DNA from: an uncultured Chthonomonadaceae bacterium
Lineage (GTDB): Bacteria > Armatimonadota > Chthonomonadetes > Chthonomonadales > Chthonomonadaceae
Assembly: GCA_963817895.1 (NCBI GenBank)
Contig: CAWFQB010000001.1
Span: forward strand, 1,568,001-1,632,000
Length of the DNA stretch: 64,000 nucleotides
Direction of reading: 5' to 3'
The notes under the pieces were generated by a model that had not been told where the DNA came from, did not search any database, and saw nothing but the letters and a program-made list of their open reading frames with translations. Below, one piece after another: positions 4,548-62,626 of the stretch; position 1 is the first letter of the stretch; each line of letters starts with the position of its first letter. A program made the translations under genes and the position numbers.

Positions 4548-4907
4548 ATGCAAATCGTTTACTGGATTTTTCTTATTTTGACCGGGCTGATCTTTGTTGT
4601 CGGCATTGTGGCCCTGACGATCAGCGGGGTTGGGTTCTACCGGCTGGTTTCTGAAACCGCGCCCTTTCTGGATGAAACGAAGGACAACGTTCAGGATTTG
4701 GGCGATCTTGCCGCCAACACGGTGGGGCGAGTGGCGGATACCGTTGATCTTGTCGAAATGCGCGTGTCGCAAACCATGGCGCAGGCGACGCAGGGCGGCA
4801 TTTCCGCAACCAAACAGGCGTTGAGCGTGGGTACGGTTCTGGCCGGTATCTACATGGCCTCCCGCGTCCTCGGCCTTGCGCGGCAACAGTTTAAGAAGAG
4901 GCACTAG
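4548..4907 (+). CDS. membrane-anchored coiled-coil protein (DUF948-like)
   Basis: N-terminal TM helix, amphipathic middle, C-terminal hydrophobic segment. Confidence 0.65.
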   Translation: MQIVYWIFLILTGLIFVVGIVALTISGVGFYRLVSETAPFLDETKDNVQDLGDLAANTVGRVADTVDLVEMRVSQTMAQATQGGISATKQALSVGTVLAGIYMASRVLGLARQQFKKRH

Positions 4908-4973
4908 ATACGAGATACAAGGTCAATGCCCTGGTACATCAGAGTTTTACTCATATCTCGTGTCTCATATCTC
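4906..4973. repeat. inverted pair of AGATACG heptamer arrays
   Basis: AGATACGAGATACAA (4906-4920) vs CTCATATCTCGTGTCTCATATCTC (4950-4973). Confidence 0.7.
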
Positions 4974-4986
4974 ACAAAGGCGCACT

Positions 4987-6375
4987 ATGCTGGAAATAAG
5001 AATTCACGCTTCGGACGGCAGGCGATGGCGGCGCAATGGGGCGCTGCTGCTTGGCCTGCTGTTCGCGGTGTATGTCGGGTATGTGGTACGCGAAATTTGG
5101 CTGCCGTTGATGATCGCGTTTTTGATCGCGATGGTGCTGGACCCGCTTGTAGATAAGATGGAGAGCCGGGGCTGGTCGCGCTTAAAGGGCGCAGTCGTGA
5201 TTTACGTGCTGTTCTTCGCCCTGCTTGGCGGTGGATTGACGTTCGCGGTTCCCGCTGTTGTAAGCCAGACTACCGCCATCACGCGAGAAATCGGACAATA
5301 CCTGCCCAGCGATACGGGCAAAGATGCCGAGTCGAAAACTCGGCATAATCTGAAACTTCTGCTGATACGCATGCGCGCTACGCCTGTTGTGGAGAATACC
5401 GTTCTACGGGCAAGCGGGCAGATCAGTAATGCTTTTACCCATGCCAACTCGTGGTTCGGCAAGGCGGCGGAATCCGCGCTTGAAAATCTGCTATGGGTGA
5501 TTATCATTCCGCTCGTTTCGTTTTACGCCTTGAAAGACCTGCATCTGATTTATGCCCGCCTGCTGTTGATGATACCGCGCCAGAACCGGGCAACGGCGCA
5601 AAACCTGCTCAATGAGGTCAGTTCGATTTTTGTGCGCTATCTGCGCGGCCTGATGATCGTGTGCGCCCTGAATGGACTGGCGACGTTTTTGCTGCTGTGG
5701 AAATTCGGGGTTCCCAATGCGGCGGGGTTGGCGGCGATTTCGGGCGTAATGTACATGGTTCCTTATATCGGGGCTGCGCTGACGATTCTGCTGGTCGGCG
5801 GCGTATGCCTGATGGCAAGCAAGCCGGTTCTGCTGATCGTGTTTCTGATGGTATTGCTGCACCATGTCTTTTTTGATCAGTTCGTCACGCCGCGCATTGT
5901 CGGGCAGCATGTCGGCCTGCATCCCATTCTGAGCATTATCGCGCTGCTGATGGGCGCGACCCTGCTCGGTATTCCGGGCATGATTCTGGCCGTTCCCATT
6001 GCCGCAACCGTGCAAATGATTCTGCTGGCGATTTTTCCGAAATTGGGCAGTCCGATTGAAGTGCCGACCGGCGAGGAGTTGCACAACCGCGTGGAAGCGG
6101 CGAGCAATTTGCCCGCGCCCTCAGACGAACCGAGGCAGGCGAGTACAGCGCAGCCCACCGGCACAATGGCGCAGGTGAGCGCGGTGCATCAGACCATTGT
6201 GGACGCAGTGGATGAGGCCGAAATCGCGGAAGCAACCGCGTCAAAGCCCGTTTCACCCCTGCTGTCGCAATCCCCGGCGCAGGCGCAGGTGTTGGATGAC
6301 GAGGCCGAAGAGGGCCGCAAGCAGGCTCCCGGCCTGCTGACCGGAACCAACAAAACGCATTATTCATCTTCATAA
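4987..6375 (+). CDS. AI-2E family (PerM-like) transporter
   Basis: Multiple TM helices; VPYIGA, TPRIVGQHVGLHP and GIPGMILAVPIAA motifs. Confidence 0.9.
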   Translation: MLEIRIHASDGRRWRRNGALLLGLLFAVYVGYVVREIWLPLMIAFLIAMVLDPLVDKMESRGWSRLKGAVVIYVLFFALLGGGLTFAVPAVVSQTTAITREIGQYLPSDTGKDAESKTRHNLKLLLIRMRATPVVENTVLRASGQISNAFTHANSWFGKAAESALENLLWVIIIPLVSFYALKDLHLIYARLLLMIPRQNRATAQNLLNEVSSIFVRYLRGLMIVCALNGLATFLLLWKFGVPNAAGLAAISGVMYMVPYIGAALTILLVGGVCLMASKPVLLIVFLMVLLHHVFFDQFVTPRIVGQHVGLHPILSIIALLMGATLLGIPGMILAVPIAATVQMILLAIFPKLGSPIEVPTGEELHNRVEAASNLPAPSDEPRQASTAQPTGTMAQVSAVHQTIVDAVDEAEIAEATASKPVSPLLSQSPAQAQVLDDEAEEGRKQAPGLLTGTNKTHYSSS

Positions 6376-6377
6376 TG

Positions 6378-6476
6378 CAGGTATTCAGGTGTTCGGGTGT
6401 TCAGGACAATACATGAGTACACGTTTGCTTTAGCGCGGAAAATCTATCAACCCAATACCTGAACACCTGAATACCT
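6378..6476. repeat. inverted pair of CAGGTGTT/CGGGTGTT octamer arrays
   Basis: 6378-6405 vs 6451-6476, between convergent genes. Confidence 0.8.
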
Positions 6477-7347
6477 ATTCCACCGGAGGATGATCGGTGT
6501 CGCCGTTGGCATGGCCGCCGTTCCAGTTGTAGATTTCGCCGCCGATGCGTCCGTAGCGGGGATTGTGCGGGCCGGAAGCGGGCGCGTAGTGTTCTACGGA
6601 CAGGCTGACGGCGTGACCATCGGCGGCGACCACCGCAAGTTTGCCCCCGTGCGTGGCGGGATACGGCCACAAATCCTCTACGCGGTCCGCCACATCGCCG
6701 TATTCCAACCGCGCAAGGTTTCGGCTTTCCGCTTCCGACTGTGGGGCGCGTAACCTATCGGCAGACATCGGGCCGGCCTCCACAAACAGCGCGGTTTGGG
6801 CGGATAGTTCCAGATTGTCTACGGGAAACGGCCCGGGCGCGAACGTGTCCCAAAAGCGCGTATTGAGCGCGTAACCGGTTTCAACATCAAACCCGCGAGT
6901 AGGGTCATGCAGCGCAGGCCGCCGTTCCCCGGCAGGATTGGCAGGGTTGTCCAGAATGGCCGTCGTCGCGCCATACGCGCCCAATCGCTTGTTCCACGTC
7001 AGCCAGTATGCTTTGCCGCCCTTCTCCTCTCCGCGCCGTTCCACTGTAGGAACCGGCGCGCCATCCCAATCCTGCGCATACAACTGCCACGCATCCGCCA
7101 ACCGCCGCATATTCGACAAACTCCGCGCCCGCTGTTCCCCCGTCCGTTGCCACATCAGCAACGGCGGCAAGCCGATAATCAGCCCGACAATCAGCAGCGC
7201 GAAAACGAGAATACGCCATTTGAAGGGAAAAGGGAAGAGGGAAGAGGGAAGAGAGACAGTCTTCCCTTCTCGTATCTCGTATCTCGTATCTCGTATCTCG
7301 TCTTTTCCCTCTTCCCTTTTCCCTTTTCCCTCTCCTAATGTTCCCAT
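6475..7347 (-). CDS. DUF1559-like protein with H-X9-DG C-terminal motif and TM anchor
   Basis: RARSLSNMRRLADAWQLYAQDWD and HGGKLAVVAADGH; ATG 7347 overlaps the upstream gene end; N-terminus is repeat-encoded. Confidence 0.75.
   Translation of the reverse strand: MGTLGEGKGKREEGKDEIRDTRYEIREGKTVSLPSSLFPFPFKWRILVFALLIVGLIIGLPPLLMWQRTGEQRARSLSNMRRLADAWQLYAQDWDGAPVPTVERRGEEKGGKAYWLTWNKRLGAYGATTAILDNPANPAGERRPALHDPTRGFDVETGYALNTRFWDTFAPGPFPVDNLELSAQTALFVEAGPMSADRLRAPQSEAESRNLARLEYGDVADRVEDLWPYPATHGGKLAVVAADGHAVSLSVEHYAPASGPHNPRYGRIGGEIYNWNGGHANGDTDHPPVE
7224..7331. repeat. nested heptamer repeat element
   Basis: (AGGGAAR)4 at 7224-7253, about five TCTCGTA units at 7268-7301, inverted (YTTCCCT)4 at 7302-7331. 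Confidence 0.85.
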
Positions 7348-9005: not shown

Positions 9006-9084
9006 TCGCGCAGCACACTCATTTCCCGCAAGGTTTACGAAACTCTCGTTCTATTATAGCAAACCGACGGGAAAATAGTTGCTT

Positions 9085-14389: not shown

Positions 14390-14427
14390 TCACCACCGAG
14401 ACACAGAGACACAGAGGTTTCACAGAG
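14390..14427 (+). repeat. left arm of 38-bp inverted repeat flanking xisHI
   Basis: TCACCACCGAGACACAGAGACACAGAGGTTTCACAGAG; 37/38 complementary to 15387-15424. Confidence 0.92.
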
Positions 14428-14491
14428 GAATACGAGGGAAAGAACCGCTAAACACACGAAGTAAACGAAAAGAAGAGCGGAGTTTTTGCGC

Positions 14492-14520
14492 TTGACGTTT
14501 CCGGCGTTTCCCGCTACAAT
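14492..14520 (+). promoter_or_regulatory. sigma70-type promoter for xisHI
   Basis: TTGACG-N17-TACAAT, 26 nt before the ATG. Confidence 0.7.
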
Positions 14521-14546
14521 TGAGAAGGGAAGCGGAAGGAGATTCT

Positions 14547-14963
14547 ATGTCGCGGCGAGATTTGTTTCATACGGCGGTGGTTCATGCGCTGGAACGGGAG
14601 GGCTGGACAATTACGGATGACCCGTACTATCTGGAATATGGCGCTCAGATGCTGCAAATTGATCTCGGCGCACAGATGCCGATTGCGGCGGAGCGAGCGG
14701 GGCGCAAAATCGCGGTTGAGATAAAGAGTTTCGCGGGTAAAACGGAGATGGTAGAATTTTACGCGGCGGTGGGGCAGTTTGTGACGTATCAGGACGCGCT
14801 GCAAGCGCAGGAACCGGAGCGGGTCTTGTATCTTGCGGTTCCTGATGAGGCTTTTGCCGCCCTGTTCGATACGGCGCGAGGCCGCAGTTTGCAAAAAAGG
14901 CTTTCGCTCTTTTTGCTGGTGTATCATTCCCAAAAGGAGACAATCACGCAATGGATAGAGTAG
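14547..14963 (+). CDS. xisH: XisH family protein (PD-(D/E)XK-like)
   Basis: SRRDLFHTAVVHALEREGWTITDDP, IDLGA, IAVEIKSF, AVGQFVTY, RVLYLAVP. Confidence 0.93.
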   Translation: MSRRDLFHTAVVHALEREGWTITDDPYYLEYGAQMLQIDLGAQMPIAAERAGRKIAVEIKSFAGKTEMVEFYAAVGQFVTYQDALQAQEPERVLYLAVPDEAFAALFDTARGRSLQKRLSLFLLVYHSQKETITQWIE

Positions 14964-15286
14964 CGGATTACGGGGCTATCGTGAAACATATTGTGGACGG
15001 AATTGCCGACCAAATCCCTGAAGACGAGGAGGTGCGAACAGAACGCAATTACGACGCAGAGCGCGGTCATTATGAACTGTTGCGCGTGGGCTGGCGCGAC
15101 ACGCGCCGTCTGCATGGAATCGTGCTTCATGTTGATATTCGGAACGACAAAGTCTGGATTGAGCATGACGGGACGGAAGACGGAATTGTGGATGAACTGC
15201 TGGAAGCGGGAATTCCGAAAGAGCATATCGTGCTGGCATTCCACCCGCCTTACAAGCGCCCCTATACCGGCTTTGCGGTCGCATGA
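14951..15286 (+). CDS. xisI: XisI family protein
   Basis: HVDIRNDKVWIEHDGTEDGIVDELLEAGIPKEHIVLAFHPPYKRPYTGFAVA. Confidence 0.95.
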   Translation: MDRVADYGAIVKHIVDGIADQIPEDEEVRTERNYDAERGHYELLRVGWRDTRRLHGIVLHVDIRNDKVWIEHDGTEDGIVDELLEAGIPKEHIVLAFHPPYKRPYTGFAVA

Positions 15287-15386
15287 GGCTCTCTAAGAGG
15301 TTTCACAGAGAAACAAAGAAGAGAGGAGGATGAGCGACTGTTGCGTCTTCAGCGTTTTCCTCACTCCTCGTTTTCTCTCCTTAAAT

Positions 15387-15424
15387 CTCTGTGAAACCTC
15401 TGTGTCTCTGTGTCTCTGTGGTGA
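15387..15424 (-). repeat. right arm of 38-bp inverted repeat flanking xisHI
   Basis: CTCTGTGAAACCTCTGTGTCTCTGTGTCTCTGTGGTGA. Confidence 0.92.
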
Positions 15425-18840: not shown

Positions 18841-18857
18841 GAAAAGCGCAAACGTTG

Positions 18858-19060
18858 GTTTCTACCCTCATCCGGCCTCCGGCCACCTTCTCCCTGCAAG
18901 GGAGAAGGCTAAATTCTTCAATGGGCGGCTGAACAGGGGATTGGAAACACGCAGGCAAAGCCCACGCCGAAACTAATCCCGTAACCAACGCACTCAACCT
19001 CCACGTTAGCCTTCTCCCTTGCAGGGAGAAGGTGGCCGGAGGCCGGATGAGGGTAGAAAC
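18858..19060. repeat. perfect 55-bp inverted repeat (REP/REPIN-like), each arm with an internal hairpin
   Basis: 18858-18912 is the exact reverse complement of 19006-19060; each arm contains a CCTTCTCCC-N5-GGGAGAAGG hairpin. Confidence 0.95.
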
Positions 19061-19523
19061 TATCGTTTAACGCGCAACATTTCCGTATAGCTACGAGGTA
19101 ACGCAAGGACAGACTGCATTTATGAAGATTTCAAACTTGCCAGCAACGCTAAGGCAGCAGCAATAGTGATTGTGATGCCTAAGAGCGTTTAGAAAAAGTA
19201 AAATCCTGCGTTTCTATTCGGCCTCAATGTCGCCTCGCAACGTATTGAAAGCGTTGCGCTTTCACTTCGATGATGCGCCTGCACGGGGCAAAGTAGGCAT
19301 CAGAAAAGACTTTTTCTAAACGCTCTAATACGCGGTAGGCAAGATCACTGCAATCTTCAGCAAGTTTGCGCACCCATGCAAACGCGCTGAGAGCAACATA
19401 AACCTCCCTCGCTTGCTTCGGAAACAGAGCAATTCCGATTCCGCCTGAAATGGGGATGGCAAAAAACATGTGTTCCACGCCATTACTCTCCTAATTCGTT
19501 TTCTCCGTACCCGCCGTAGTTTG

Positions 19524-19566
19524 TTTCTCCTTTTCTCCTTTTCTCCTCTTCTCCTTTTCTTCTCCT
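19524..19566. repeat. TTTCTCCT octamer array
   Basis: About 5 units right after the GH63 stop codon. Confidence 0.7.
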
Positions 19567-22365: not shown

Positions 22366-23303
22366 TCAGGAGGAAGAGGAGAGCGTTGCCTGCGCCGCGT
22401 GAAGGGTGTTGCGCAGCAGCATGGCAATGGTCATGGGGCCGACGCCGCCGGGAACGGGCGTAATGCAGGCGGCAACACGGGCCGCGGACTCGAAATGCAC
22501 GTCGCCCACATCGCCGCCCCTGCCTTCCACGCGGTTGTAGCCCGCGTCCATGACTGCCGCGCCGGGTTTAATCATGTCGCCTGTAATCAGTTCCGCGCGT
22601 CCGACTGCGGCAACGAGAATGTCGGCCTGCCGCGTGTATTCGGCCAGATTGGGAGTGCGCGAGTGGCAAATGGTGACGGTGGCGTTGCGGTTGAGCAGCA
22701 TCAGCGCGACGGGCTTGCCTAAAATGATGCTGCGCCCAACTACAACCGCGTGTTTTGCCCTCAATGGGAATGTTGTACCGATCCAGCAGTTCGATGATTC
22801 CCGCCGGGGTGCAGGAGGGAAACGCGGGTTCCCCATTCATCAGGCCACCGAGCGAACTGCGGCTGATGCCGTCAATATCTTTGTGGGGCGAAACGCTGAT
22901 CCAGAACCGCCGGTTCATGCAGATGTTTGGGCAGGGGATGCTGCACCAGAATCCCGCTGATGGCCGGATCGTTATTCAGCCGTTCTACCAGGTCTTCCGC
23001 TTCGGCCTGCGTTGCTGTATCGGGCAGGCGGTGAATGCTGCTGTCCATGCCGACCCATTTACACGCCTTTTGCTTCATGGCGACGTAGGTTTCCGAGGCG
23101 GGATCGGCCCCGATCAAGACAGCGGCCAGATGCGGCGTCACGCCCTTCGCCTTGAGTTCGCTTACCTGCGCGGCAATCTCGGCGCGGAGGGTTCGCGCGG
23201 TTGCCATACCGTCAAGTAGCAAGGATGAAGGATGAAGGATGAAGGATGAATCCTCTCCTTCTGTTTCCTGTTCTCTGTTCCCTGTTTCCTTTTCTGCTGT
23301 CAC
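22366..23303 (-). CDS. folD: bifunctional methylenetetrahydrofolate dehydrogenase/cyclohydrolase (two frame changes)
   Basis: [49 protein letters not shown]. Confidence 0.93.
23221..23290. repeat. AAGGATG and CTGTTYC heptamer arrays inside the folD 5' end
   Basis: Translate on the minus strand as [10 protein letters not shown] and [10 protein letters not shown]. Confidence 0.8.
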
Positions 23304-24895: not shown

Positions 24896-24912
24896 GGAAA
24901 AACCTTTGTGTC

Positions 24913-25020
24913 AGGTTGTTAGGTTGTTAGTTGTTAGGTTGTTAGGTAAATAGGATTTTTGAGCGTCTTTTCCTGCGCGATAAGCGTTTCTTAACCTAAC
25001 AACCTAACAACCTAACACCT
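24913..25020. repeat. inverted pair of AG(G)TTGTT 7/8-mer arrays
   Basis: 24913-24946 vs 24993-25020. Confidence 0.85.
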
Positions 25021-25193: not shown

Positions 25194-25985
25194 ATGCCTG
25201 TGTTATCTGCTATGCCTGACAATTCCGAAATGCCTGCTGCCCTGCCTGTGATTCACATTCTCGATATGCCCGTTCATCATGTCACGATGCGCGACGCGCT
25301 GGAAACCATTGACGGCTTCATCCGTTCCGGCGTGTCCCACCATGTCGTAACCGCCGATGCTTCCATGCTCGTTATGGCGCAGCAGGATGCGGATTTACGC
25401 GCCATTGTTGGCGGGGCCGATCTGATTACGCCCGACAGCGAGGGCATTTTGTGGGCGTCACGGCAGCAGGGGCAAGCGTTGTCCGAGCGCGTGTCCGGCG
25501 TAGAAATCGTCGAGCGATTGTGCGAACGTTCCTCACATCACGGGCAGAAGATTTACTTTTTAGGGGCCGCGCCCGGTATCGCGGAGGGCGCCAAAGCCCG
25601 TATGGAAGCGAAATACCCCGGCGCGCAAATCGTCGGAACGCGCAATGGATTTTTCACGGATGCGGATTTGCCGCAAGTGTTAGCCGACATTCGCGCCTGC
25701 CGTCCCGATGTGCTGTGCGTGGCGATGGGCATTCCCAAACAGGAAAAATGGATCGCCCGTCACCGCGAAGCGCTGGGCGTACCTGTTCTCATTGGCGTCG
25801 GCGGAACCTTAGATGTGCTTTCCGATACGGTGAAACGCGCCCCGAAAATTATGCGGCAACTAAAGCTGGAATGGCTGTGGCGCGTCCTCAAAAACCCCCG
25901 CAAAATCGGCAAAGTGATGCTGCTCCCCCGCTTCGTGCTGCTGGTGCGCGGGCATAAGGGAAAAGGGAAGAGGGAAGAGGGATAA
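25194..25985 (+). CDS. WecB/TagA/CpsF family glycosyltransferase
   Basis: ERVSGVE, IYFLGAAPG, VAMGIPKQEKWI, GVGGTLDVLSDTVKRAP, LEWLWR. Confidence 0.92.
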   Translation: MPVLSAMPDNSEMPAALPVIHILDMPVHHVTMRDALETIDGFIRSGVSHHVVTADASMLVMAQQDADLRAIVGGADLITPDSEGILWASRQQGQALSERVSGVEIVERLCERSSHHGQKIYFLGAAPGIAEGAKARMEAKYPGAQIVGTRNGFFTDADLPQVLADIRACRPDVLCVAMGIPKQEKWIARHREALGVPVLIGVGGTLDVLSDTVKRAPKIMRQLKLEWLWRVLKNPRKIGKVMLLPRFVLLVRGHKGKGKREEG

Positions 25986-26063
25986 GTGAAGATACGAGAT
26001 ACGAGATACGAGATACGAGCAGGAGAGGATTCCTCAACACCCAACACCCAACATCCAACACCC
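25957..26063 (+). repeat. three adjacent heptamer arrays (AGGGAAR, AGATACG, CAACACC) spanning a gene junction
   Basis: Encode GKGKREEG at the GT C-terminus and IRDTRYEIR..TPNTQHPTP at the CobA N-terminus. Confidence 0.85.
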
Positions 26064-27698
26064 GGAACGGTCTATTTGATCGGGGCGGGGCCGGGCGATC
26101 CGGGGTTGATTACGGTGCGGGGGCGGATGTTGCTGCAAACGGCGGATGTGGTTGTGTATGATCGGCTGGCGCATCCCTCCCTGCTGGATTATGCGCGGGC
26201 GGACGCGGAAAAGGTTTATGTTGGGAAGGTAAGCGCGCATCACGCCATGAAGCAGCCGGATATCAACGCGCTGCTGCTGGATCGGGCGAAACAGGGCAAA
26301 AGCGTGGCGCGGTTGAAGGGCGGCGACCCGTTTGTGTTCGGCAGGGGCGGCGAGGAAGCCGAAGAGTGCCGGGACGCGGGAGTTCCGTTTGAGATAGTGC
26401 CGGGGGTTACGTCGGCCATTGCCGCGCCCGCGTATGCCGGTATTCCGGTCACGCACCGGGATATGGCGTCGTCATTTGCCATTGTCACCGGACACGAGCG
26501 GGATGACAGCCGCGAGTCGGGAACCCGCGCGCCGGGAGAGGCGGAACAGCGCCGCAACTGGGCCAATATCGCCAAAGCGGGGGATACGCTGATTTTTCTG
26601 ATGGGCGTGGAAGCCCTGCCCGATATTGCCGCCCGATTGCAGGAAAACGGACGCGATCCGCAAACTCCCGTCGCTCTCGTGCAATGGGGAACGTGGACGC
26701 GGCAGCAGGTCGTGACCGGCACACTGGCAACCATTGTGGAGGACGTGAAACGAGCCGGCCTGACGCCGCCCGCCGTGTGCGTGGTTGGCGAAGTGGTGAA
26801 ACTGCGCGAACGCCTGCGCTGGTTCGACGATCCCGCCTCGCGTCCCCTGTTCGGCAAAAAAATCGTCGTCACGCGAGCGCGGGAACAGGCGAGCGCCCTC
26901 TCCGATTTGCTGCGTTCGCGGGGCGCGGAACCCTTAGAATTTCCCGCCATCGAAATCGCCCATCTGGACGACATGAGCGAACTGGATGCCGCGCTTGCCA
27001 ATCTGAACTCCTACCAGTGGATGATTGTCACCAGCGCGAACACGGTTCCGGTTCTGGCCGAACGCCTGAACGCGCTGAATTTGGACGCCCGCGCCTTCCA
27101 CGCCACGCGCATTGCCGCCATCGGCCCCGCCACTGCCGATGCCCTCCGCCTGCATCTGGGACTCCGCGCCGACTTCATGCCGACCGAAGCCGTTGCCGAA
27201 GCCATTCTTGCCGAGTGGCCGGACGCCGATGTGACCGGGCAGCGCATCCTCCTGCCCCGCGCCCGCGAAGCCCGCGAAATTCTGCCCGACCAACTGCGCG
27301 AACGGGGCGCAACCGTAGACGTAATCGCCGCCTACGAAACCCGCATGGATGGCGCGGCGTCCGACCGCTTGAAGCAGCAGTTACAAAACGGCGAGATAAA
27401 CGTCTTAACCTTCACAGCCTCGTCAACGGTACGCAATTTTGCGCAAGCGTTGTAGAAGGAGAAAGGGAACAGGGAAAAGGAGAAAGCGTAGGGGAGCATG
27501 ATTGCGCCCAATCCCCAACCTCCAACCCCCAACACCCTTGCAGAGCTTGTTGGAGAAACAACCATTGCGGCCATTGGGCCGGTTACGGCGCAAACCCTGC
27601 GCGAGTTCGGCCTGAACGTGGACATTGAAGCCGAAGAACATACCATTCCCGGCCTTGTTGCGGCGATTGAAAAGCATTTCGCCACGACGCGGAAATAG
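25986..27698 (+). CDS. cobA: fused uroporphyrinogen-III C-methyltransferase / synthase (CobA-HemD); frame broken at a repeat insert 27450-27540
   Basis: VYLIGAGPGDPGLIT, RLKGGDPFVFGRGGEE, PLFGKKIVVTRA, FTASSTVRNF, then AAIGPVTAQTLREFG...HTIPGLV. Confidence 0.9.
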
Positions 27699-32100: not shown

Positions 32101-32236
32101 TTTAGCCGCGAATTCACGCGAATGAACGCGAATAGGATTATACACCCGTCGCGCTGAATTATCCATTTGAACCACAGGTATCAGGTACCGGGTTTGTCCC
32201 TCGTATCTTGTATCTCGTATCTCGTATCTCATATCT
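32101..32236. repeat. decamer array (32101-32134) and TCGTATC heptamer array (32201-32236)
   Basis: Direct reading. Confidence 0.8.
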
Positions 32237-36331: not shown

Positions 36332-37756
36332 CAGTATCTTTGCACTTTTGGGTTCAGGCCGCCAAGAGTAGCTGCACCTGCTCTGGCGTGGTTCCTTGTT
36401 GGTAGTGGTCGAATACCCATTGCAGCAGATTGTTCTGGTGTTGTGCCTGTATTTGGCGTCTCATGTGTCCGATACTGACACTTTGCTGTCTGTTCTCAAC
36501 CCTCGGCTTCGGTAGAGAGGCGCGTTGTTCTTCCAGAAACACGTAGGCCAGACACGCAAGCGTCCAGAAGCGCACGACGGCAACATCGCTCATCATCTGG
36601 TAGTGGTCGGTGCCGAAGAGTTCCTTGACATCGGCAAAGAACGTCTCGATGTGCCAGCGGACGGCGATAATGGCAACAAGCGTTGGGGTGTCCGCGTCTA
36701 CCAGACTGCTGACGTAGAAGGTTGTCTTGTGCGGCGGATCCTCCAGGTGACGCTTCACGCACAGCACTTGACACGCGCCTAACTTGCGCACCAGCGTTCG
36801 CCGCCGATGCACCCAGAGAACCTGCCCGCCCGTGTCCGAAGGCCAGACCACCTTCTCGAACTGCTCGTCCGTCACAGATGCGGCGTAAACCGACAGCTTT
36901 TGCCAGACTTTGTTTCCCTGCGCGTCCGTCACGCGCAGACTGCGGTTGCAGGCTAGACCGCCGCTGAGGTCGAAGCCGCGTTGCTTGGCCGCTTTCCACA
37001 GCGCTTTGTTCATGTACCACGCATCTACCAGCGCATGCGTGTGCGTGTCGGGGGCAGGGACAAAGGTTTGCACACACGAAACCGCCATCGCGACCTTGCT
37101 CACGAACGGCGTTTCTTGCGCTTGGCACACGTTCTTGGTCCGGTACATACGTGGCAGCAAGGGACAACGCCTGCCAACAAGCACATACAACGCTTGAAAC
37201 AGGCTATGCCCGCTCACCCGCTTGCCGTGTGTGCTGCTGTGGTGACGCCCTAAACCGCGCATCGTTTTGGCATACGGCTTGGCATGGGTGCTGTCATCCA
37301 TAATCAGGTAACCGGTGAGCAGGGTTGCCTTCGGACGACCGGGCGCTTTGCCGCGCTGTTGTCGTTGGTGTTGATGCGCGTACTGAACGCTTGCTTGCTG
37401 CTGTTGCCGAAAACGGGCTTGCCACTGCTCTGCTAAAGCGGCTTCGCTCCACGGCGCACGGGCAAAGAAGCGCGACAGTCCGGCTAAAGTGACACTGCAT
37501 TGCACTTTGTGCAACATTCCTGAGAGTGTGCGTCGGTCTTCGACTTGCATGAGCGCCAGCAGTACGGTTTCGAGGTACTTGAACTGAGGCTTGCTGAACA
37601 CGCAACGAAATGCGGCTAGGAATTGACAAAGTGCCTGACTTGCGCAGATAATAGGAGTGGGCATGGTTTTCCTCGGGAATGGATGGTTGGCACTTTCCAT
37701 TTTCCACAAAGAAAGCCATGTCCGCTACCCCTTCTTCAAAAAGTGCAAAGATACTG
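36332..37756 (-). mobile_element. complete 1425-bp IS701-like insertion sequence
   Basis: Perfect 18-bp terminal inverted repeats CAGTATCTTTGCACTTTT; 6-bp target duplication AATACA at 36326-36331 and 37757-37762. Confidence 0.95.
36354..37664 (-). CDS. IS701-family DDE transposase
   Basis: LSRFFARAPWSE, LIMDDS, LVDAWY, RWHIETFFADVKELFG. Confidence 0.9.
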   Translation of the reverse strand: MPTPIICASQALCQFLAAFRCVFSKPQFKYLETVLLALMQVEDRRTLSGMLHKVQCSVTLAGLSRFFARAPWSEAALAEQWQARFRQQQQASVQYAHQHQRQQRGKAPGRPKATLLTGYLIMDDSTHAKPYAKTMRGLGRHHSSTHGKRVSGHSLFQALYVLVGRRCPLLPRMYRTKNVCQAQETPFVSKVAMAVSCVQTFVPAPDTHTHALVDAWYMNKALWKAAKQRGFDLSGGLACNRSLRVTDAQGNKVWQKLSVYAASVTDEQFEKVVWPSDTGGQVLWVHRRRTLVRKLGACQVLCVKRHLEDPPHKTTFYVSSLVDADTPTLVAIIAVRWHIETFFADVKELFGTDHYQMMSDVAVVRFWTLACLAYVFLEEQRASLPKPRVENRQQSVSIGHMRRQIQAQHQNNLLQWVFDHYQQGTTPEQVQLLLAA

Positions 37757-41139: not shown

Positions 41140-42096
41140 CCAACCCACAATCCACAACCCAAAATCGCCAATCGCAAAGCGCCAATCGTAAATCAAAAAT
41201 GGGCAGAGCCGCCCGTAACGAGGCGCTGACCGCGCTGCTGTTCGCGAGTCCGTGGCTTATCGGGTTCAGCGTGTTTATGTTGTATCCGCTTCTGGCCTCC
41301 ATCTATTACAGCTTCTGCGATTACTCCGTGCTGCGTCCGCCCGTGTATACCGGGCTGGCGAACTACCAGAATCTGACTGCGCGATCAGGTGTTCAAAGAC
41401 GCCTTCTGGAACACGTTCTGGTACGCCATTTACGCCCTGCCCATCAGCACGTTTGCCGCGCTCAGTCTCGCCCTGCTGCTCAACACCAAAGTGCGTGGCA
41501 TGACGTTTTACCGCGCTCTGTTTTACGTGCCGTCCCTCGTTCCCGCAGTGGCGACGGGCGTGTTGATTACGTGGATATTCAACGGGCAGCATGGCGTATT
41601 GAACGAACTTCTCAATCCGATTTTAGGTCGTTTCGGCTGGAAAGCGCCGCAATGGCTGGGCGATCCCGTCTGGTCGAAAGCGACCCTGATTATCATGGCG
41701 GCGTGGGGGGCGGGCAACGCGATGGTGATTTACCTCGCGGGGTTGCAGGACGTGCCGCAGCCCCTCTATGAAGCAGCGGATTTGGACGGCGCGAACTGGT
41801 GGCAGAAAACGCGCAACGTGACCATTCCCATGCTGTCGCCCGTGATTTTGTTCAACGTCATCATGGGACTGATTGGAACCCTTCAGGTGTTCACCGTGCC
41901 GTATCTGGTTTCGCCTGCCGGTTCGCCTGCCCGCTCGATTTATTTCTATACCATGTACCTGTTCGACAACGCTTTTATCTATCACAAAATGGGCTACGCC
42001 AGCGCGATGGGCTGGATCATGTTCCTCATCATTCTCGCGCTCACAATGCTGTCCCTGCGCCTGTCAAAACGCTTCGTGCATTACGGCTCTTCTTAA
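41136..42096 (+). CDS. sugar ABC transporter permease (frame change near 41382)
   Basis: SPWLIGF, LYEAADLDGA, YMFDNAF-like YLFDNAF...MGYASAMGW; repeat-encoded N-terminus. Confidence 0.9.
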
Positions 42097-44077: not shown

Positions 44078-44109
44078 AGGTTGTTAGTTGTTAGTTGTTA
44101 GTTGTTAGG
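44078..44109 (+). repeat. AGTTGTT heptamer array
   Basis: 4 units after the permease stop. Confidence 0.8.
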
Positions 44110-46138: not shown

Positions 46139-46248
46139 GTTCAGGTGTTCAGGTGCTCAGGTGTTTGTGTTTCGCGCAAAAGCCAACATGTAACTTCTGC
46201 ATTGTCCTGAACACCCGAATACCTGAACACCTGAACACCCGAATACCT
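46139..46248. repeat. inverted pair of TTCAGGTG-type octamer arrays
   Basis: 46139-46165 vs 46206-46248, between convergent genes. Confidence 0.85.
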
Positions 46249-50283: not shown

Positions 50284-50287
50284 AAAT

Positions 50288-51164: not shown

Positions 51165-51282
<118 letters not shown>

Positions 51283-51864: not shown

Positions 51865-51870
51865 GAATAT

Positions 51871-51970
51871 GGTGTATGGTGTTCGGTATTGGGTATTGGG
51901 TGTTCGGTTGATGGTCTTGCCGCGCGAAATGAATTCCGGTAGTTTCGTATTCTCCGAATACCGAATACCG
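51871..51970. repeat. inverted pair of GGTRTTS heptamer arrays
   Basis: 51871-51907 vs CCGAATACCGAATACCG 51954-51970. Confidence 0.75.
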
Positions 51971-54473: not shown

Positions 54474-54577
54474 CAGGTTGTTAGTTGTTAGGTTGTTAGG
54501 TTGTTAGGTATGCGGTTGGCAGAGTTGCGGCGCGCAAGCGTGGCGCTCTTGCATCCTCCTAACAACTAACAACCTGC
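54473..54577. repeat. inverted pair of AG(G)TTGTT arrays
   Basis: 54473-54492 is the perfect 20-bp reverse complement of 54558-54577. Confidence 0.88.
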
Positions 54578-54602: not shown

Positions 54603-55310
54603 TTGACCAGAGACGCGCTGTATACATTGGAAGAACTGGCGCACACCGCCCACATCACGCCCCGCGCCGTGCGTTACTATGCGGCCAAAGGATTGTTGCC
54701 CGCGCCACAGTCCCGAGGCCGCTACGCGCTTTACGGAAGCGCCCACCTCAACCGCCTGCGCCTGATCGGGCAAATGAAGCAGGCGCTGCTTCCCATTGCC
54801 GCCATGCGGGATCGCATGTTATCCCTCACGGACGCGCAGGTAGCCGCCCTGCTGACGCGCAGCGAATGGCCGGAACGCAATTCCCACTCGCAAGCGGGCA
54901 ACGCGCTGACCGATGTTCCCCCGGATACGGTTGGCGCGACGCTCGAAGAGCAGGCGGAAGCGTACCAGTACATTCTGGATGCCCTGACCGCCCGCCCCAA
55001 CGGAGAAGCGCTTCTTGCCGAAAACGCGCAGGCTGTCCCCCCCTCGCGCCGCGCCCTGTTTCCGCGTCCTTCCGTTGCAGAAGAAGAGGAGAAGAGGAGA
55101 CAGGGAGAAAAGGAGATACAAGATACAAGATACAAGATACGAGAAGGAGAGCAATCGTCAATCGCCAATCGTCAATCGTCAATCGAAATCTGGCAGCGTA
55201 TTCTGCTTGCGCCGGGGGTGGAACTGCATGTGCGCGACGATAAAAATACGCAAAACCGGCAGAAATTGGAACGGCTGATTGCCGAAGCGAAATCTTTGTT
55301 CGAGTCGTGA
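54603..55310 (+). CDS. MerR-type HTH regulator with repeat-derived internal peptide
   Basis: YTLEELA..ITPRAVRYYAAKGLLP..RLRLI; C-term WQRILLAPGVELHV; 55084-55185 holds three repeat arrays. Confidence 0.8.
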   Translation: MTRDALYTLEELAHTAHITPRAVRYYAAKGLLPAPQSRGRYALYGSAHLNRLRLIGQMKQALLPIAAMRDRMLSLTDAQVAALLTRSEWPERNSHSQAGNALTDVPPDTVGATLEEQAEAYQYILDALTARPNGEALLAENAQAVPPSRRALFPRPSVAEEEEKRRQGEKEIQDTRYKIREGEQSSIANRQSSIEIWQRILLAPGVELHVRDDKNTQNRQKLERLIAEAKSLFES

Positions 55311-57286: not shown

Positions 57287-57303
57287 TAAAATCTCCTTGT
57301 AGG

Positions 57304-57416
57304 TAGGGTTTTAGGGTTTTAGGTTTCTATGGTTCTATGGTTTCAGGTGTTCGGCTTGTATCTCGTATCTCGTATCTTGTATCTCCTATCTTCTTACCCC
57401 TTACCCCTTTCACCTT
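57304..57416. repeat. composite array (AGGGTTTT, TCGTATC and CTTACCC units)
   Basis: Direct reading, in a divergent intergenic region. Confidence 0.7.
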
Positions 57417-57553
57417 ATAAAGGGTAAAATCCTGTATGAAGACGCGAGAAGCGCGACGGCAAACAAAGCGGTTTACCCGGACGTATGGAGTTTCAGAGAG
57501 AACCTGCGGCGTTTCTGAACGTCTGCATAGTAACGAGAAGTTACGAAGGAGTT

Positions 57554-57799: not shown

Positions 57800-57804
57800 T
57801 CGCA

Positions 57805-57867
57805 AAGGATGAAGGATGAAGGATGAAGGATGAAGTTTTTCCTTCTGTCTTCTGTCTTTTGTCTTCT
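57805..57867. repeat. AAGGATG and CTTCTGT heptamer arrays
   Basis: 57805-57835 and 57842-57867. Confidence 0.82.
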
Positions 57868-57894
57868 CTTTTCCTCTGCTGGAGACAACGGCCT

Positions 57895-58827
57895 ATGACG
57901 CAGCCGCCCCTCGCGTCGCAACAACCGCAACTGCAAGACCGTTTTCGTGGCGTCCTGCTCGGCTCGGCAGTGGGGGACGCGCTCGGCGCGCCGCTGGAGT
58001 TTCAGCCCGCCCGCGATCCGAACCATTACGTCACCGATATGATCGGTGGCGGATGGCTGCGCCTTGCCCCCGGCGAATGGACGGACGACACGCAAATGAC
58101 GCTGTGCGCGGTAGACAGCCTGCTGGAAAAGCGCGTGTTCGATCCCGACGATATTGCGCGGCGTTTTGTCGCGTGGCTGCAATCCAGCCCGCCGGATGTG
58201 GGCAACCATACGCGAACAGTTTTGAACGCCATTGCGCGTGGCGTGGGATGGGAAGAGGCCAGTACAAAGGCGCAGGCCGCCAATCCCGATAACGCGCCCA
58301 ACGGTTCCCTCATGCGCTGTTCGCCCCTCGCGCTGTTCTTTTATCGCCACCCTGATTACGTCGCCACGCTGTCGCCCGTGTTTTCGCGCATTACGCATGC
58401 CCACGCGGATTGCGAACAGAGTTGCGTGTTTCTCAACGTCGCCATTGCCCTGCTGCTCATGGGCGCGGATAAACAGGCGGCGATAGCGGGCGCGGAACAG
58501 GCCACTGCGGGGGTGTCGGAGGAATTAAAAGCGCGAATTCGCCGCGCGCAGGAAACCCGCAACGACACCTCTCCCACCGGCTACGTTTTAGACACGCTGG
58601 AAGTGGCAATATGGGCGTTTCTGCACACGGCCACGCTGGAAGCCGCGCTGATTGCCGTCATCAACCGGGGCGCGGATGCAGATACGGTCGGGGCGGTTAC
58701 AGGCGCATTAGCAGGCGCTTATTACGGCTATTCCTGCATCCCCGCCCGCTGGCTGAATGCGCTCCACGAATGCGACGCGCTTCTCGCCCGCGCCGATGGC
58801 CTGCTGCTGATTGCGCAAGGGGCGTAG
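57895..58827 (+). CDS. ADP-ribosylglycohydrolase (DraG/ARH family)
   Basis: AVGDALGAPLEF, EWTDDTQM, NGSLMR, GADADTVGAVTGALAGAYYG. Confidence 0.95.
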   Translation: MTQPPLASQQPQLQDRFRGVLLGSAVGDALGAPLEFQPARDPNHYVTDMIGGGWLRLAPGEWTDDTQMTLCAVDSLLEKRVFDPDDIARRFVAWLQSSPPDVGNHTRTVLNAIARGVGWEEASTKAQAANPDNAPNGSLMRCSPLALFFYRHPDYVATLSPVFSRITHAHADCEQSCVFLNVAIALLLMGADKQAAIAGAEQATAGVSEELKARIRRAQETRNDTSPTGYVLDTLEVAIWAFLHTATLEAALIAVINRGADADTVGAVTGALAGAYYGYSCIPARWLNALHECDALLARADGLLLIAQGA

Positions 58828-58835
58828 GTAAGGAT

Positions 58836-58909
58836 AGGTTGTTAGTTGTTAGATTGAGCAGGACAGTATTATAAACTTTGTATCGTAACAACCTAGCAAC
58901 TAACAACCT
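58836..58909. repeat. inverted pair of AG(G)TTGTT arrays
   Basis: 58836-58852 vs 58886-58909. Confidence 0.78.
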
Positions 58910-58930
58910 TCCTCTCGAAAGGATTTCACG

Positions 58931-59746
58931 GTGACAAACACGGAATGGCGGCGCGCGATTGTGGTGGGCGCGTCGTCGGGAATAGGCGAATCGCTGGCGC
59001 GGCAACTGGCGGCGCAGGGCTGTCAGGTTGCGCTGGTGGCGCGGCGCGAATCGGAATTAGCGCGGATTGTTGAAGACATTAACGGGAGAACTCGGCAGGT
59101 AGTTGCGCCAGTTCCGCAAGAATCTGCCCGAATACCCAACACCGAACACCCAACACCAACATTAGCGCGGGCGTATGTCCATGATGTGCGCGAGTATGAG
59201 TGCGTTCCCGCGCTGTTTCAGCAGATTACGCATGATATGGGCGGACTGGACCTGATTATTTATGCGGCGGGCGTGATGCCGCTGATTGAGGACAACGAGT
59301 ACGCCTTTGATAAAGACAGGCTGGCTATCGAGATCAATGTTCTGGGCGCGATTGCGTGGCTGAACGAGGCGGCGCAGCGATTCGAGCGGGCGCAGGCGGG
59401 AACCATTGTCGGCATCTCTTCGGTTGCGGGCGACCGGGGGCGCAAGGGCTATCCGGCTTATGGCGCGTCCAAGACCGCGCTCAACACCTATCTGGAAGCC
59501 CTGCGCAACCGTATCGGCAGATACGGCGTTAAAGTCGTCACCATCAAACCCGGCCCCGTAGATACGCCGATGACCAAAGACGTGACCAAAAAGCCGCTGT
59601 TGATTTCCGCAGACGAGGCCGCTAAAGCAATTCTTACCGCCGCCCGCGCCGGGAAACATACCGCCTACGTTCCGTGGAAGTGGCAGCCGATTATGCTGAT
59701 TATTCGCAACATCCCGTCCGCCATTTTCAAAAAGTTAAATTTTTAG
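58931..59746 (+). CDS. SDR oxidoreductase, DprE2-like
   Basis: GASSGIG, SSVAGDRGR, YGASK, TIKPGPVDTPMT; repeat-derived insert RIPNTEHPTP. Confidence 0.85.
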   Translation: MTNTEWRRAIVVGASSGIGESLARQLAAQGCQVALVARRESELARIVEDINGRTRQVVAPVPQESARIPNTEHPTPTLARAYVHDVREYECVPALFQQITHDMGGLDLIIYAAGVMPLIEDNEYAFDKDRLAIEINVLGAIAWLNEAAQRFERAQAGTIVGISSVAGDRGRKGYPAYGASKTALNTYLEALRNRIGRYGVKVVTIKPGPVDTPMTKDVTKKPLLISADEAAKAILTAARAGKHTAYVPWKWQPIMLIIRNIPSAIFKKLNF

Positions 59747-59893
59747 GAGTGTTTAGCCGCAAATGAACGCGAATACACGCGAATGTCGTTCAAGTACATT
59801 GTCGCGGTAACATGAAGGCAACTCTTGCGTTGATGAGACGATTGGCCGAAGGCCTGATAACCGGCTTTTTATAAGCCGGATGCGCGTACCATT

Positions 59894-61411
59894 ATGGAAC
59901 TGTCCACACTACAAACGACTCTGCCCCCCAACCCTTATACAGAGATAAACACCGCTTCTTGCGTCCACACGTCCGAAACATTGCGCCCGCCCATGCCGCT
60001 GGAACGTCTGGAGCGCGTGGAAACGTGGGGCATGAATGAGGCCGTTCTTTCCTACGTGTATCGCCCGACTACCATTCAGGGAATTCGGGAGGCGTTTGAG
60101 ACGGCGCGGGCGCATGGCCTGAAAGTGGGACTGCGCGGCGCGGGACGGAGTTACGGCGATGCGTCGCTGTCCGGCGAAAATGTCTGCCTCGACCTGACGC
60201 GCATGAACCGAATTTTGGACTGGAATCCGCAAACCGGCGTTCTCGTTATCGAACCGGGCGTGACCCTGCGCCAATTGTGGCAGTATGTGGTTGGCGATGG
60301 CTGGTGGCCGCCCGTCGTGTCGGGAACCATGACCGTGACGATGGGCGGCGCGTTGGGCATGAACTTTCACGGCAAGAACAACTTCAAAATGGGGCCGATA
60401 GGCGACCATGTTCTGGAATTCAACCTGCTGCTGCCGACCGGCGAGTTGGCGACGTGCAGCCGCGAACAGAATGCCGACCTGTTTTATGCCGCTATCGGCA
60501 GTTTCGGCATGTTGGGCTGCTTTACGCGCATCGTCCTGCAAATGAAAAAGGTGGAATCCGGCCTGCTGTCCGTGTATGCGTTTTCCGTTCGTAATTTTGC
60601 CGATATTATCCGCGAGTTCGAGGCCCGCATGGACAAAGCCGATTATCTTGTGGGCTGGATAGACTGCTTTGCCAAAGGCGATCAAATGGGCAGGGGGCAG
60701 GTACACGAGGCGTTTTACCTGCACGGGGAGGACGATCCTAACCCCGCCCAAACCCTGCGCGTGGAGAATCAGGAGTTACCAGACACGCTGTTCGGCTTGA
60801 TTCCAAAGTCCATTATGTGGCGATTGATGAAGCCATTCAGCTGCGATTGGGGCATGCGACTGCTGAATTGGGCCAAATATACCGCCAGCAGCACAATCGG
60901 CAACCGCAAGTGGGCGCGGCAATCCCATGCCGGTTTCGCGTTTCTGCTGGACTACGTTCCCAACTGGAAATGGGTGTACAAGCCAGGGGGATTGATACAG
61001 TACCAGAGTTTCGTTCCCGCCGCCCATGCCGAAAAATGCTTCACCGCGCAAATAAAATTGTGTCAGCGCATGGGCATTGTTCCCTATCTCGGCGTGTTCA
61101 AGCGGCATCGGCGGGACGATTTTCTCATGTCCCACGCGGTAGACGGTTACTCCTTCGCCCTCGACTTCCCCGTCACCAAACATAATCGCAAACGGCTGTG
61201 GGCGCTTACCGCCAAACTGAACGAGTTGGTACTGGCCTCCGGCGGGCGTTTCTATTTCGCCAAAGACAGCACGCTGGACAACGCCAGCGCGGCAACGTAC
61301 CTCGGCGGGGATGTGCTGCGCCAGTTCGCCGCCCTGAAACGCGAGTGCGACCCCGAGAACCTGCTGCAAACGGAATTGTCGAAAAGGTTGTTCGGAGACT
61401 TTGGCGCGTAA
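59894..61411 (+). CDS. FAD-binding oxidoreductase, DprE1-like
   Basis: RGAGRSYGDAS, PVVSGT..TMGG..HGKN, IQYQSFVP, GYSFALDF, GGRFYFAKDS. Confidence 0.88.
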   Translation: MELSTLQTTLPPNPYTEINTASCVHTSETLRPPMPLERLERVETWGMNEAVLSYVYRPTTIQGIREAFETARAHGLKVGLRGAGRSYGDASLSGENVCLDLTRMNRILDWNPQTGVLVIEPGVTLRQLWQYVVGDGWWPPVVSGTMTVTMGGALGMNFHGKNNFKMGPIGDHVLEFNLLLPTGELATCSREQNADLFYAAIGSFGMLGCFTRIVLQMKKVESGLLSVYAFSVRNFADIIREFEARMDKADYLVGWIDCFAKGDQMGRGQVHEAFYLHGEDDPNPAQTLRVENQELPDTLFGLIPKSIMWRLMKPFSCDWGMRLLNWAKYTASSTIGNRKWARQSHAGFAFLLDYVPNWKWVYKPGGLIQYQSFVPAAHAEKCFTAQIKLCQRMGIVPYLGVFKRHRRDDFLMSHAVDGYSFALDFPVTKHNRKRLWALTAKLNELVLASGGRFYFAKDSTLDNASAATYLGGDVLRQFAALKRECDPENLLQTELSKRLFGDFGA

Positions 61412-61519
61412 TTTGTTCATGCAAACGCCTCGGTTTTGTCACGCTGTTGTCACACAGAATGATATATCCTACAGCCATGAACCCCTGCGAAGACTGCAAA
61501 CGTCTTCTCAACATAGGGT

Positions 61520-62503
61520 ATGCTGTACATTACAGAAGCAAGAGGCTGCAAAGAACGCATTATGTCCTGTCAACACCGAACACCGAATACCGGGCGCTCA
61601 CTTGTGAACAAACACCTGAACACCCGAATACCTGAACACCTGAATACCGCTTTCACCCTGATTGAATTGCTCGTCGTAATCGCCATTATTTCCATACTCG
61701 CGGCCATTCTGTTTCCCGTCTTCGCGCAGGCGCGTAGTTCGGCCCGCAACACGCAGGACATGTCCAACATCCGGCAAGTCGGGCTGACCGCCACGATGTA
61801 CGCGCAGGATTATGACGAGCAGTGGGTTCCGGTCGGGTCGTGGAATGATCCGAGCGTCACGCCTTACACCAACCCTAAAGCGCCCGCGCCCGGTATACCC
61901 TGGCAGGGATGGGGATTGCGCCTGCTGCCGTATGCCAAAAACAAACAGATTTTTCACTCGCCCTGGATGCCCGACAAAGCCAACTGGTTCACGGATGCCT
62001 GCGCCACGTCCAACGGCGAACTGCTCACCAATACCTATCAGATGAACTGGTTTTTAGGCTGCGACGGCAGTTACCCGTTCGATTTCGACCCGGACACGTA
62101 CACGCACACGCCTAACGGCAAGGTTTTGGATACGCCCGCAATTCTGGCGCAAATCAATCAGCCTTCAAGCACCGTCGCGTTTACGCTCAATCAGGCGACT
62201 TCCGCCTTTGGCAACAGTTTCGGCTGCGACTGGAACACGCTGGAGTCGTCGGACTTCGATAATAAACTGCGCTGGCGGGCCGTCTTCCGCAAGGGCGGCA
62301 ACCTGGCGTTTGTGGACGGTCATGCCAAATTTACTATCGCGCGGGAGGCCGACAGCGCGGGCGAAGATTTCCCCGCCTGTCAGGGTGGTCCAAGCCACAC
62401 CATCTACAACTGGTCGGCGCGTAATCTATGGATGTACCCGGCCATGCCCGACGACAACGGCGGCTACGGCGATGGCCCCATGCCGCTGCCCTGCGCTCAA
62501 TAG
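61520..62503 (+). CDS. prepilin-type N-terminal cleavage/methylation domain protein (DUF1559)
   Basis: AFTLIELLVVIAIISILAAILFPVFAQAR, MYAQDYDE, NLAFVDGHAK; start uncertain (61520/61562/61604); leader is repeat-encoded. Confidence 0.92.
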   Translation: MLYITEARGCKERIMSCQHRTPNTGRSLVNKHLNTRIPEHLNTAFTLIELLVVIAIISILAAILFPVFAQARSSARNTQDMSNIRQVGLTATMYAQDYDEQWVPVGSWNDPSVTPYTNPKAPAPGIPWQGWGLRLLPYAKNKQIFHSPWMPDKANWFTDACATSNGELLTNTYQMNWFLGCDGSYPFDFDPDTYTHTPNGKVLDTPAILAQINQPSSTVAFTLNQATSAFGNSFGCDWNTLESSDFDNKLRWRAVFRKGGNLAFVDGHAKFTIAREADSAGEDFPACQGGPSHTIYNWSARNLWMYPAMPDDNGGYGDGPMPLPCAQ

Positions 62504-62505
62504 GA

Positions 62506-62626
62506 AGGTATCAGGTATCAGGTGTCAGGTGTCAGAAAAACACGCGCTTACTTCAGCCCTGTTCGGAATAGAGTACGAGGGAAATGAGGCATTTGCCTGA
62601 CACCTGACACCTGATACCTGACACCT
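62506..62626. repeat. inverted pair of AGGTRTC heptamer arrays
   Basis: 62506-62535 vs 62596-62626. Confidence 0.88.

Follow-up and report, generated by a model that had tools for sequence, protein, structure and literature searches.

Heptamer repeats are over-represented in many bacteria and, in the accounts drawn on here, have no accepted cause (PMC4692102, PMC4679880). The closest described examples are the GGGAATC repeats of Xanthomonas and the GGGGA(C/T)T repeats of Nostoc (Rehm et al. 2015, PMC4692102). Here we describe arrays of 7- and 8-bp words, often facing each other as inverted pairs, in a stretch of 64,000 bp from an uncultured Chthonomonadaceae bacterium (G000:C1:1568001-1632000, hereafter the window) and in the whole assembly to which it belongs (G000; 7.48 Mb, 14 contigs, 57% GC, 81% complete). 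They resemble the Xanthomonas repeats, as that account portrays them, in having about four units per array, in forming convergent inverted pairs (70-75 per genome in Xanthomonas), in occupying sites shared between species and in the placement of the G-rich strand, which follows stop codons on the coding strand and precedes start codons on the other (PMC4692102). The pair layout is already published for one Xanthomonas heptamer. A preliminary description of the window, which knew of no established mechanism for heptamer repeats, presented the layout as less known than it is: convergent inverted heptamers with this stop and start rule are on record (PMC4692102). The Xanthomonas study, as far as its account goes, deals with one word per genome and with no cassette, core family or word swap, whereas dozens of words are found here (PMC4692102). 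Nested arms, unmatched arms and inserts in ribosomal RNA (rRNA) genes are further differences from what is described for those repeats.

Cyanobacterial short tandemly repeated repetitive (STRR) sequences are short intergenic heptamer runs. The TAACTGA repeats of Beggiatoaceae are also short intergenic heptamer runs, oriented to start codons, with a distribution that overlaps that of xisH/xisI and with no mechanism evident in the published account (PMC4679880). Unlike ours, TAACTGA and STRR repeats are described mostly as single direct arrays, with neither inverted partner nor cassette. Ribosomal RNA intervening sequences, known from Coxiella and Leptospira, replace a helix-tip tetraloop with a long stem, a likeness confined to two 16S copies here, and occur with or without an open reading frame for S23p, a protein of the family (PF05635) that is also cassette cargo here (PMC4990558). 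The association of these sequences with S23p is already published, and the four-helix-bundle family has no known function in that account (PMC4990558). Unlike the intervening sequences so described, the stems reported here are built of tandem words and are found mostly in mRNA junctions. Repetitive extragenic palindromic (REP) elements, REPINs and TIRtrons likewise combine a repeat-bracketed small gene with many gene-less hairpins near or inside genes; in the REP/REPIN case, as described, the arms are not tandem heptamers, and the gene bracketed here is not a HUH tyrosine transposase (PMC3733652). By eye, the ends of our elements are family-specific word extensions and lack the terminal GTAG tag that is a REP/REPIN trait.

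We propose, with moderate confidence, that the pairs are gene-less, non-autonomous hairpins of four-helix-bundle and GxxExxY cassette families, copied between loci and kept matched by slippage and template switching. In a literature search mainly of openly accessible papers, we found no published link of four-helix-bundle or GxxExxY genes to heptamer arms and no published account of unit swapping at fixed sites.

Polarised inverted pairs throughout the genome

Arrays with periods of 7 (948) and 8 (427) dominate in G000. On contig C1, which holds the window, 224 period-7 and 113 period-8 arrays were counted compared to none after codon shuffling. A looser scan, restricted to 66 recurring words, revealed 2,261 arrays at 1,319 sites (540 on C1 versus 1 when shuffled). 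The array system is real, genome-wide and more structured than first seen, and an assembly artefact is an unlikely source of the arrays because an independent sister-species assembly has arrays at the same sites. The units, first taken to be locus-specific, proved to be family-specific: a few words recur, at dozens to more than 150 loci. The commonest (AGATACG, AAGGATG, AGGAGAAA and AGGTTGTT) contain no GGG and do not qualify as G-quadruplex-capable units (G-tract of at least three), and some rarer words do contain GGG. All-frame stop codons as the purpose of the words were ruled out by inspection; AGATACG repeats contain none.

The ten pairs of the preliminary description were all found, with the G-rich arm 5' in every one. 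This polarity is non-random genome-wide. The G-rich arm comes first in 319 of 321 inverted pairs with a gap below 150 bp, the two exceptions being purine-rich-first, and every G-rich arm (G arm) precedes every C-rich arm (C arm) in 663 of 670 sites holding both arm types, a label that is unreliable where the G content of a word is close to its C content, as in ACACAGAG. Arms are also more alike within than between loci: the right arm repeats a variant unit of its partner left arm in 79 of 132 pairs, compared to 32.5 expected from other loci with the same unit. Two details noted earlier, a terminal variant mirrored between arms at 51 kb and an 8-7 unit pattern at 54.5 kb, are visible in the sequence. 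Complementarity outside the arrays showed no excess over control within pairs (p=0.25). Facing arms carry the same unit, as first described, in most two-arm sites, but unlike units in 152 of 512 (in the window at 23221, 25956, 27456, 57304 and 57805). Nested sites are common genome-wide. Some compound elements show a fixed nesting order, with AGGAGAAA outermost, ACAGGATT innermost and mix-and-match inner partners (G000:C3:149056-149321, C5:656688-656961 and C1:1197698-1197972).

Placement at gene boundaries is borne out by an excess at stop codons. The G arm begins at a stop codon in 750 of 1,983 cases, versus two controls, 445 of 4,866 random intergenic points and 50 of 601 lone arms taken in the reverse reading; its outer end had to lie -15 to +9 bases from a stop that ends a run of at least 100 open codons. 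The junctions occupied by pairs are tandem in 424 cases, convergent in 69 and divergent in 48, confirming that pairs occur in all three settings; these counts rest on crude gene calls (6,871, with unreliable starts), and the 214 array sites inside open reading frames are an overcount. The boundary rule does not extend to the arrays in frame at 7224, 55082 and 59128 or to two pairs in the 16S rRNA gene.

Genes bracketed by the arms

A link of the repeats to four-helix-bundle and GxxExxY genes, which the preliminary description had proposed to test, was found: inverted arms bracket these genes. G000 has two PF05635 (four-helix-bundle) and four GxxExxY genes, and all six lie between inverted arms with the G- or purine-rich arm first. 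We refer to such gene-bearing elements as loaded cassettes. Their arm words are 8-mers at the PF05635 genes and longer at the GxxExxY genes (9-10-mers in three of four). Genes were scored as armed by a fixed inverted-10-mer rule, under which 17 of 22 PF05635 genes of G000 and its relatives are armed and no control is; one of the two G000 genes falls below the rule despite visible arms. The same analysis across phyla used the best 80 of more than 595 PF05635 matches, two of which were dropped for short upstream DNA, and revealed arms at 38 of 78 loci compared to 0 of 66 control windows. Among these 38 loci, 33 are G-first and 23 have period 7. In Xanthomonas codiaei, a four-helix-bundle gene is bracketed by GGGGACC arms (L264, 4935-4967 and 5340-5375), which are related to the GGGAATC repeat published, in the account cited, for this genus (PMC4692102).

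Genomes with a strong PF05635 match are more often heptamer-rich (at least 10 matches per Mb of three generic period-7 patterns) than genomes without (10 of 17 versus 3 of 24; Fisher p=0.003, overstated because kin are not independent). Two words of the loaded cassettes of relative G002 occur at 18.4 and 25.3 per Mb in G002 versus 0.4 and 1.1 per Mb in G000, and for three of five loaded cassettes the word is commoner in its own genome. The xisHI pair was considered as a third cargo class and ruled out, being mostly unarmed. By eye, only one of 18 xisH loci viewed, that of the window, is bracketed by arms. G000 and both sister species have 12-13 xisH matches each, several of them broken, and we read xisHI as a passenger.

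The same sites in relatives

Two relatives of the same genus were compared, G002 (1.3 of 8.0 Mb fetched) and G001 (0.5 of 6.6 Mb). Arrays are present in G002 at 107 of the 129 G000 sites whose flanks could both be placed there; 87 of these have no shared word and 20 share one. No array was detected at the other 22, six of which are short empty sites, or in G001 at 23 of 35 orthologous sites. Empty orthologous sites, which the preliminary description had suggested looking for, therefore exist, and whole elements are present or absent as units: contigs of relatives at ~90% identity lack the elements at 62506 and 57805. Conversely, one G002 module has eight copies in 1.3 Mb and none in G000.

Where an array is present in both genomes, the site is retained and the word is mostly rewritten. 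The word was kept in three of 31 clean orthologous pairs. Words at orthologous sites are nonetheless closer to each other than random (2.5 edits on average versus 3.2 when permuted, p=2e-4, same 31 pairs), indicating that part of the change is drift in place. Eight AGGCATT pairs of G002 stand opposite five different G000 words. Words both drift in place and converge on genome-specific words. At junctions where a relative has a loaded cassette, G000 is bare (L029), has a gene-less pair with another word (L011, L012) or gives a match on one side only (L030).

Cores between the arms

The sequence between the arms falls partly into families. The family B core gave 36 matches of at least 15 bits compared to none in the reversed control, and goes with the related words AGGTGTTC, AGGTTGTT and CGGTGTT. 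Family A goes with AGATRGGT in G000 and AGTAGTC in G002; loaded cassettes that are close relatives of each other carry these words in the two genomes (L004, L029). An identical non-periodic 22-mer is common to another site in 126 of 718 multi-array sites. Orthologous cores are mostly unalignable, and the ortholog is top-ranked at just 2 of 31 sites, which rules out inherited intergenic DNA as the source of the cores. At two orthologous sites the core is inverted between G000 and G002.

Two further origins of the cores were considered and set aside. Family B looks promoter-like by eye, yet it also lies between convergent genes; in tandem junctions it is oriented with transcription in 20 cases and against it in 11. 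Copies of other genomic DNA were not supported either, since 208 of 232 cores with a match matched only themselves. A search of Rfam gave no match above the gathering score; ten weak matches to miRNA models, all on the 7224 hairpin, were below threshold.

The PF05635 protein matches structure 2GSC, which has five chains (E 2.7e-20). Its fold may resemble the pentameric Avd fold of diversity-generating retroelements (DGRs). Unlike DGRs as described (10.1101/2021.01.26.428298), the system here showed no DGR-class reverse transcriptase, and adenine-specific variation was not found in cores of families A and B. Per-base conservation in family B is 0.74 for A, 0.75 for C, 0.76 for G and 0.75 for T; in family A it is 0.61 for A versus 0.65-0.76 for the other bases, a weak difference over 11 rows.

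A family A pair was seen between the SWIM and reverse transcriptase genes of a type XIII retron (L057, 2720-2830; G000:C6, about 134170-134280). The same junction in G002 holds an AGTAGTC pair with its core inverted. This placement is probably due to chance because many junctions are occupied.

Elements inside genes and rRNA

The 7224/7302 pair is present as described earlier, but it encloses a third array and most likely forms an in-frame part of the N-terminus of a minus-strand gene. The reading frame continues through it in G000 and G002 alike. At orthologous sites deep in strong gene calls, the length difference is a multiple of three in 15 of 18 cases versus 32 of 91 intergenic ones.

The 16S rRNA gene of G000 carries two gene-less pairs, with fold z-scores of -9.5 and -6.5. 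G002 has inserts at both of the same places with other words, and the 16S genes of G005, G009 and G013 are without inserts. One of the inserts replaces a GCAA loop present in G001, G005, G009 and G013. The G001 16S genes, at 1,686 bp, contain, at the first of these places, a long insert of a different kind (L146, about 1710-1850). Two 1,805-bp, low-scoring 16S-like matches lie on the second contig of G013 (G013:C2; L152, L154). An AGGGATT pair was also seen at G000:C4:878977-879036, ~2.5 kb beyond the end of the 16S gene, at the expected place of the 23S gene.

Elements in the window

The genes of the window are ordinary and functionally unrelated to one another. The elements are listed below in window coordinates, with the strand where one is assigned.

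4906-4974: AGATACG-type pair with a short G arm and a degenerate C arm, in the tandem junction before an AI-2E transporter gene; an AGGCATC/T pair at this junction in G002.
6378-6476: AGGTGTTC pair with family B core, flanked by convergent stop codons; hairpin z of about -6 for each strand; pair absent in G002.
7224-7333: AGGGAAR pair around a lone AGATACG-type C arm, likely in frame at the N-terminus of a minus-strand gene; a different insert in G002, also in frame.
14394-15420: ACACAGAG-type inverted arms around an xisH-xisI pair (genes 14520-14963 and 14951-15286, plus strand); absent at that place in G001.
19524-19560, minus strand: lone AGGAGAAA arm directly past a minus-strand stop codon.
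23221-23294: unmatched pair, AAGGATG with an AGGGAAC-type C arm.
24909-25017: AGGTTGTT pair; an AGGATTC pair in G002, no pair in G001.
25956-26063: nested site with AAGGGAA arm, AGATACG arm and unmatched C arm; outer arm kept and inner arms changed in G002.
27456-27537: unmatched pair.
32107-32236: 10-mer GxxExxY-type G arm and AGATACG-type C arm; the arms of GxxExxY locus L007 have this 10-mer as their unit.
41141-41194: two lone C arms in the interval from a stop to the following start.
44080-44108, plus strand: lone AGTTGTT G arm directly past a stop codon.
46139-46248: AGGTGTTC pair with family B core, between convergent genes.
51165-51282: AGATACG pair with mirrored inner variant; an AGATAAG/AGATATG pair in G002.
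51868-51970: GGTRTTS pair between convergent genes; a AGGTGTTC pair in G002.
54475-54573: AG(G)TTGTT pair with family B core; core kept in G002 beneath a different unit.
55082-55185, plus strand: two G arms and an unmatched C arm within a MerR-family reading frame.
57304-57417: AGGGTTTT/ATGGTTCT G arm and two unmatched C arms; the two-word mix also forms the arms of loaded cassette L003.
57805-57867: unmatched pair AAGGATG/AAGACAG; 21-24 plain bases in its place in relatives' contigs from three sequencing runs.
58838-58908: AG(G)TTGTT pair; an AGGCATT pair in G002.
59128-59161, plus strand: lone C arm translated within a short-chain dehydrogenase, in an insert of ~18 aa relative to G001.
61572-61648: prepilin-type gene with two C arms at its 5' end.
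62506-62626: AGGTRTC pair filling a tandem junction; 3 bases in a relative's contig where G000 has 131.

Two other features of the window were noted. A separate palindromic element of ~210 bp at 18850-19067 has long CCCTC...GAGGG arms, C-rich first, and many copies in G002; it may be akin to the hairpins beside DUF559 genes. A DDE transposase gene (PF13546/PF01609) lies at 36354-37709 and has more copies elsewhere, one of them within 9-mer arms at C14:676198.

Discussion

The arm design and several words are common to the gene-less pairs and the loaded cassettes, and the pairs are likely gene-less members of the cassette families. Each is a hairpin element of ~110-130 bp in which about four words make up the G-rich arm and a family-specific core separates it from a complementary C-rich arm. 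Such an element likely spreads by copying from locus to locus, and its targets would be stop-codon junctions, protein surface loops and rRNA helix tips, often at sites already occupied. Arrival at an occupied site would replace the resident arms or nest with them, changing the word at a fixed site; such inter-locus copying is the likely cause of the rewriting seen between G000 and G002. The match within a pair is likely maintained by slippage inside each arm together with template switching from one arm to the other, and core inversion of the kind seen at two orthologous sites is a reported outcome of template switching, in the account cited (PMC8604942). The fixed polarity would be inherited from the design of the cassette, whose putative cognate protein likely recognises its own arms. 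A non-autonomous element and template switching between arms had both been offered in the preliminary description, and both are supported by these results.

Several results weigh against this proposal. Neither G001 (97% complete) nor G015 gave a PF05635 or TIGR02436 match, yet arrays are numerous in both, and several genomes with a PF05635 gene have few arrays. For two of five loaded cassettes the word is commoner in the other genome, and neither assembly contains a loaded cassette with its own top word (AGATACG in G000, AGGCATT in G002), that of G000 being 81% complete. The drift of words in place accounts for part of the change without copying. Insertion sequence (IS) elements and xisHI also lie inside arms, so the cargo may itself be a passenger. 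The pairs resemble miniature inverted-repeat transposable elements mobilised by DDE enzymes in having terminal inverted repeats around a shared non-coding core, but the cores are strongly diverged, and 144 of 219 are singletons. Also unlike such elements, they showed no target-site duplication: in 146 pairs the longest shared flank averaged 3.66 versus 3.76 for shuffled partners, a comparison in which duplications of 2-3 bp are invisible. An origin of the pairs by cargo deletion is without support because no cargo-gene remnant was found in any core, nhmmer searches near arms giving only intact genes; Shine-Dalgarno-like short spacers at compound sites are a weak hint of such a remnant. Finally, no mobilising enzyme was identified among the reverse transcriptases, tyrosine transposases and IS elements looked at in G000. 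The only PF00078 gene is the type XIII retron reverse transcriptase, on another contig. For the REP-associated tyrosine transposases (RAYTs), which the preliminary description had listed for a co-occurrence test, PF01797 has three matches, one bracketed by an inverted repeat with arms unrelated to these words and two showing no such repeat in the scan. The IS elements seen have their own unrelated ends, and a few lie inside arms.

A bolder form of the cassette proposal is tentative, and we consider it doubtful. Armed cassettes would be undescribed, transposase-free mobile elements, in which a protein pentamer reads the array at about one word per subunit, homes the hairpins or the cassette and overwrites resident arms, and would be the source of both heptamer repeats and rRNA intervening sequences. 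The homing targets would be stop-codon junctions and RNA helix tips.

That the host alone produced the pairs is unlikely. Slippage would make the runs, template switching would mirror them and selection on RNA stems, for processing, stability or termination at gene ends, would keep them, with four-helix-bundle genes merely landing there or acquiring stems. Strong stems were computed on both strands of the tested pairs, and a slippage account of heptamers is cited in the Xanthomonas paper (PMC4692102); the arrays without a gene in G001 and G015, the passengers inside arms and the partial drift of words are also as expected. What this explanation leaves unaccounted for are the family-specific cores, the presence and absence of whole elements and the convergence of unrelated sites on one genome-specific word. 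Nor does it explain why arming is usual for PF05635 genes (38/78) and rare for xisH in the same genomes.

It is improbable that a telomerase-like activity wrote G-rich repeats, with no donor, on both 3' ends of a break or processed RNA before joining, as the preliminary description had suggested for both ends of a break. Polarity would then be a direct consequence, arm length has a tight upper limit (3-5 full words in 304 of 306 arms, the minimum of three being set by the search) and in-place exchange affects even single unpaired arms, including ones in frame. Weighing against it as a main route are whole elements in which core and arms appear and disappear together, cores that group into families, family B cores without base-specific variation and the type of the sole reverse transcriptase found, which belongs to a retron. 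Equally improbable is a host regulatory network in which the pentamer is an RNA-binding protein acting on arms at gene ends, and sites are matched to the current protein's word by selection rather than copying: placement at stop and start codons, words that in part follow protein clades, and the five chains of 2GSC against about four to five words per arm (an S23p-family protein is pentameric in the account cited, PMC4990558) fit it, but the assembly lacks a cognate gene for most arrays, some sites are within genes and rRNA, and the flanking genes are functionally unrelated.

In the cassette proposal, the armed cassette would join heptamer repeats to the S23p family and make both directly testable. 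If true, it would identify one origin for rRNA intervening sequences and one for short in-frame protein inserts, and would represent copying of DNA from locus to locus, seemingly without a transposase. The unexplained heptamer repeats of bacteria would gain a testable origin if the kinship with the cassettes holds.

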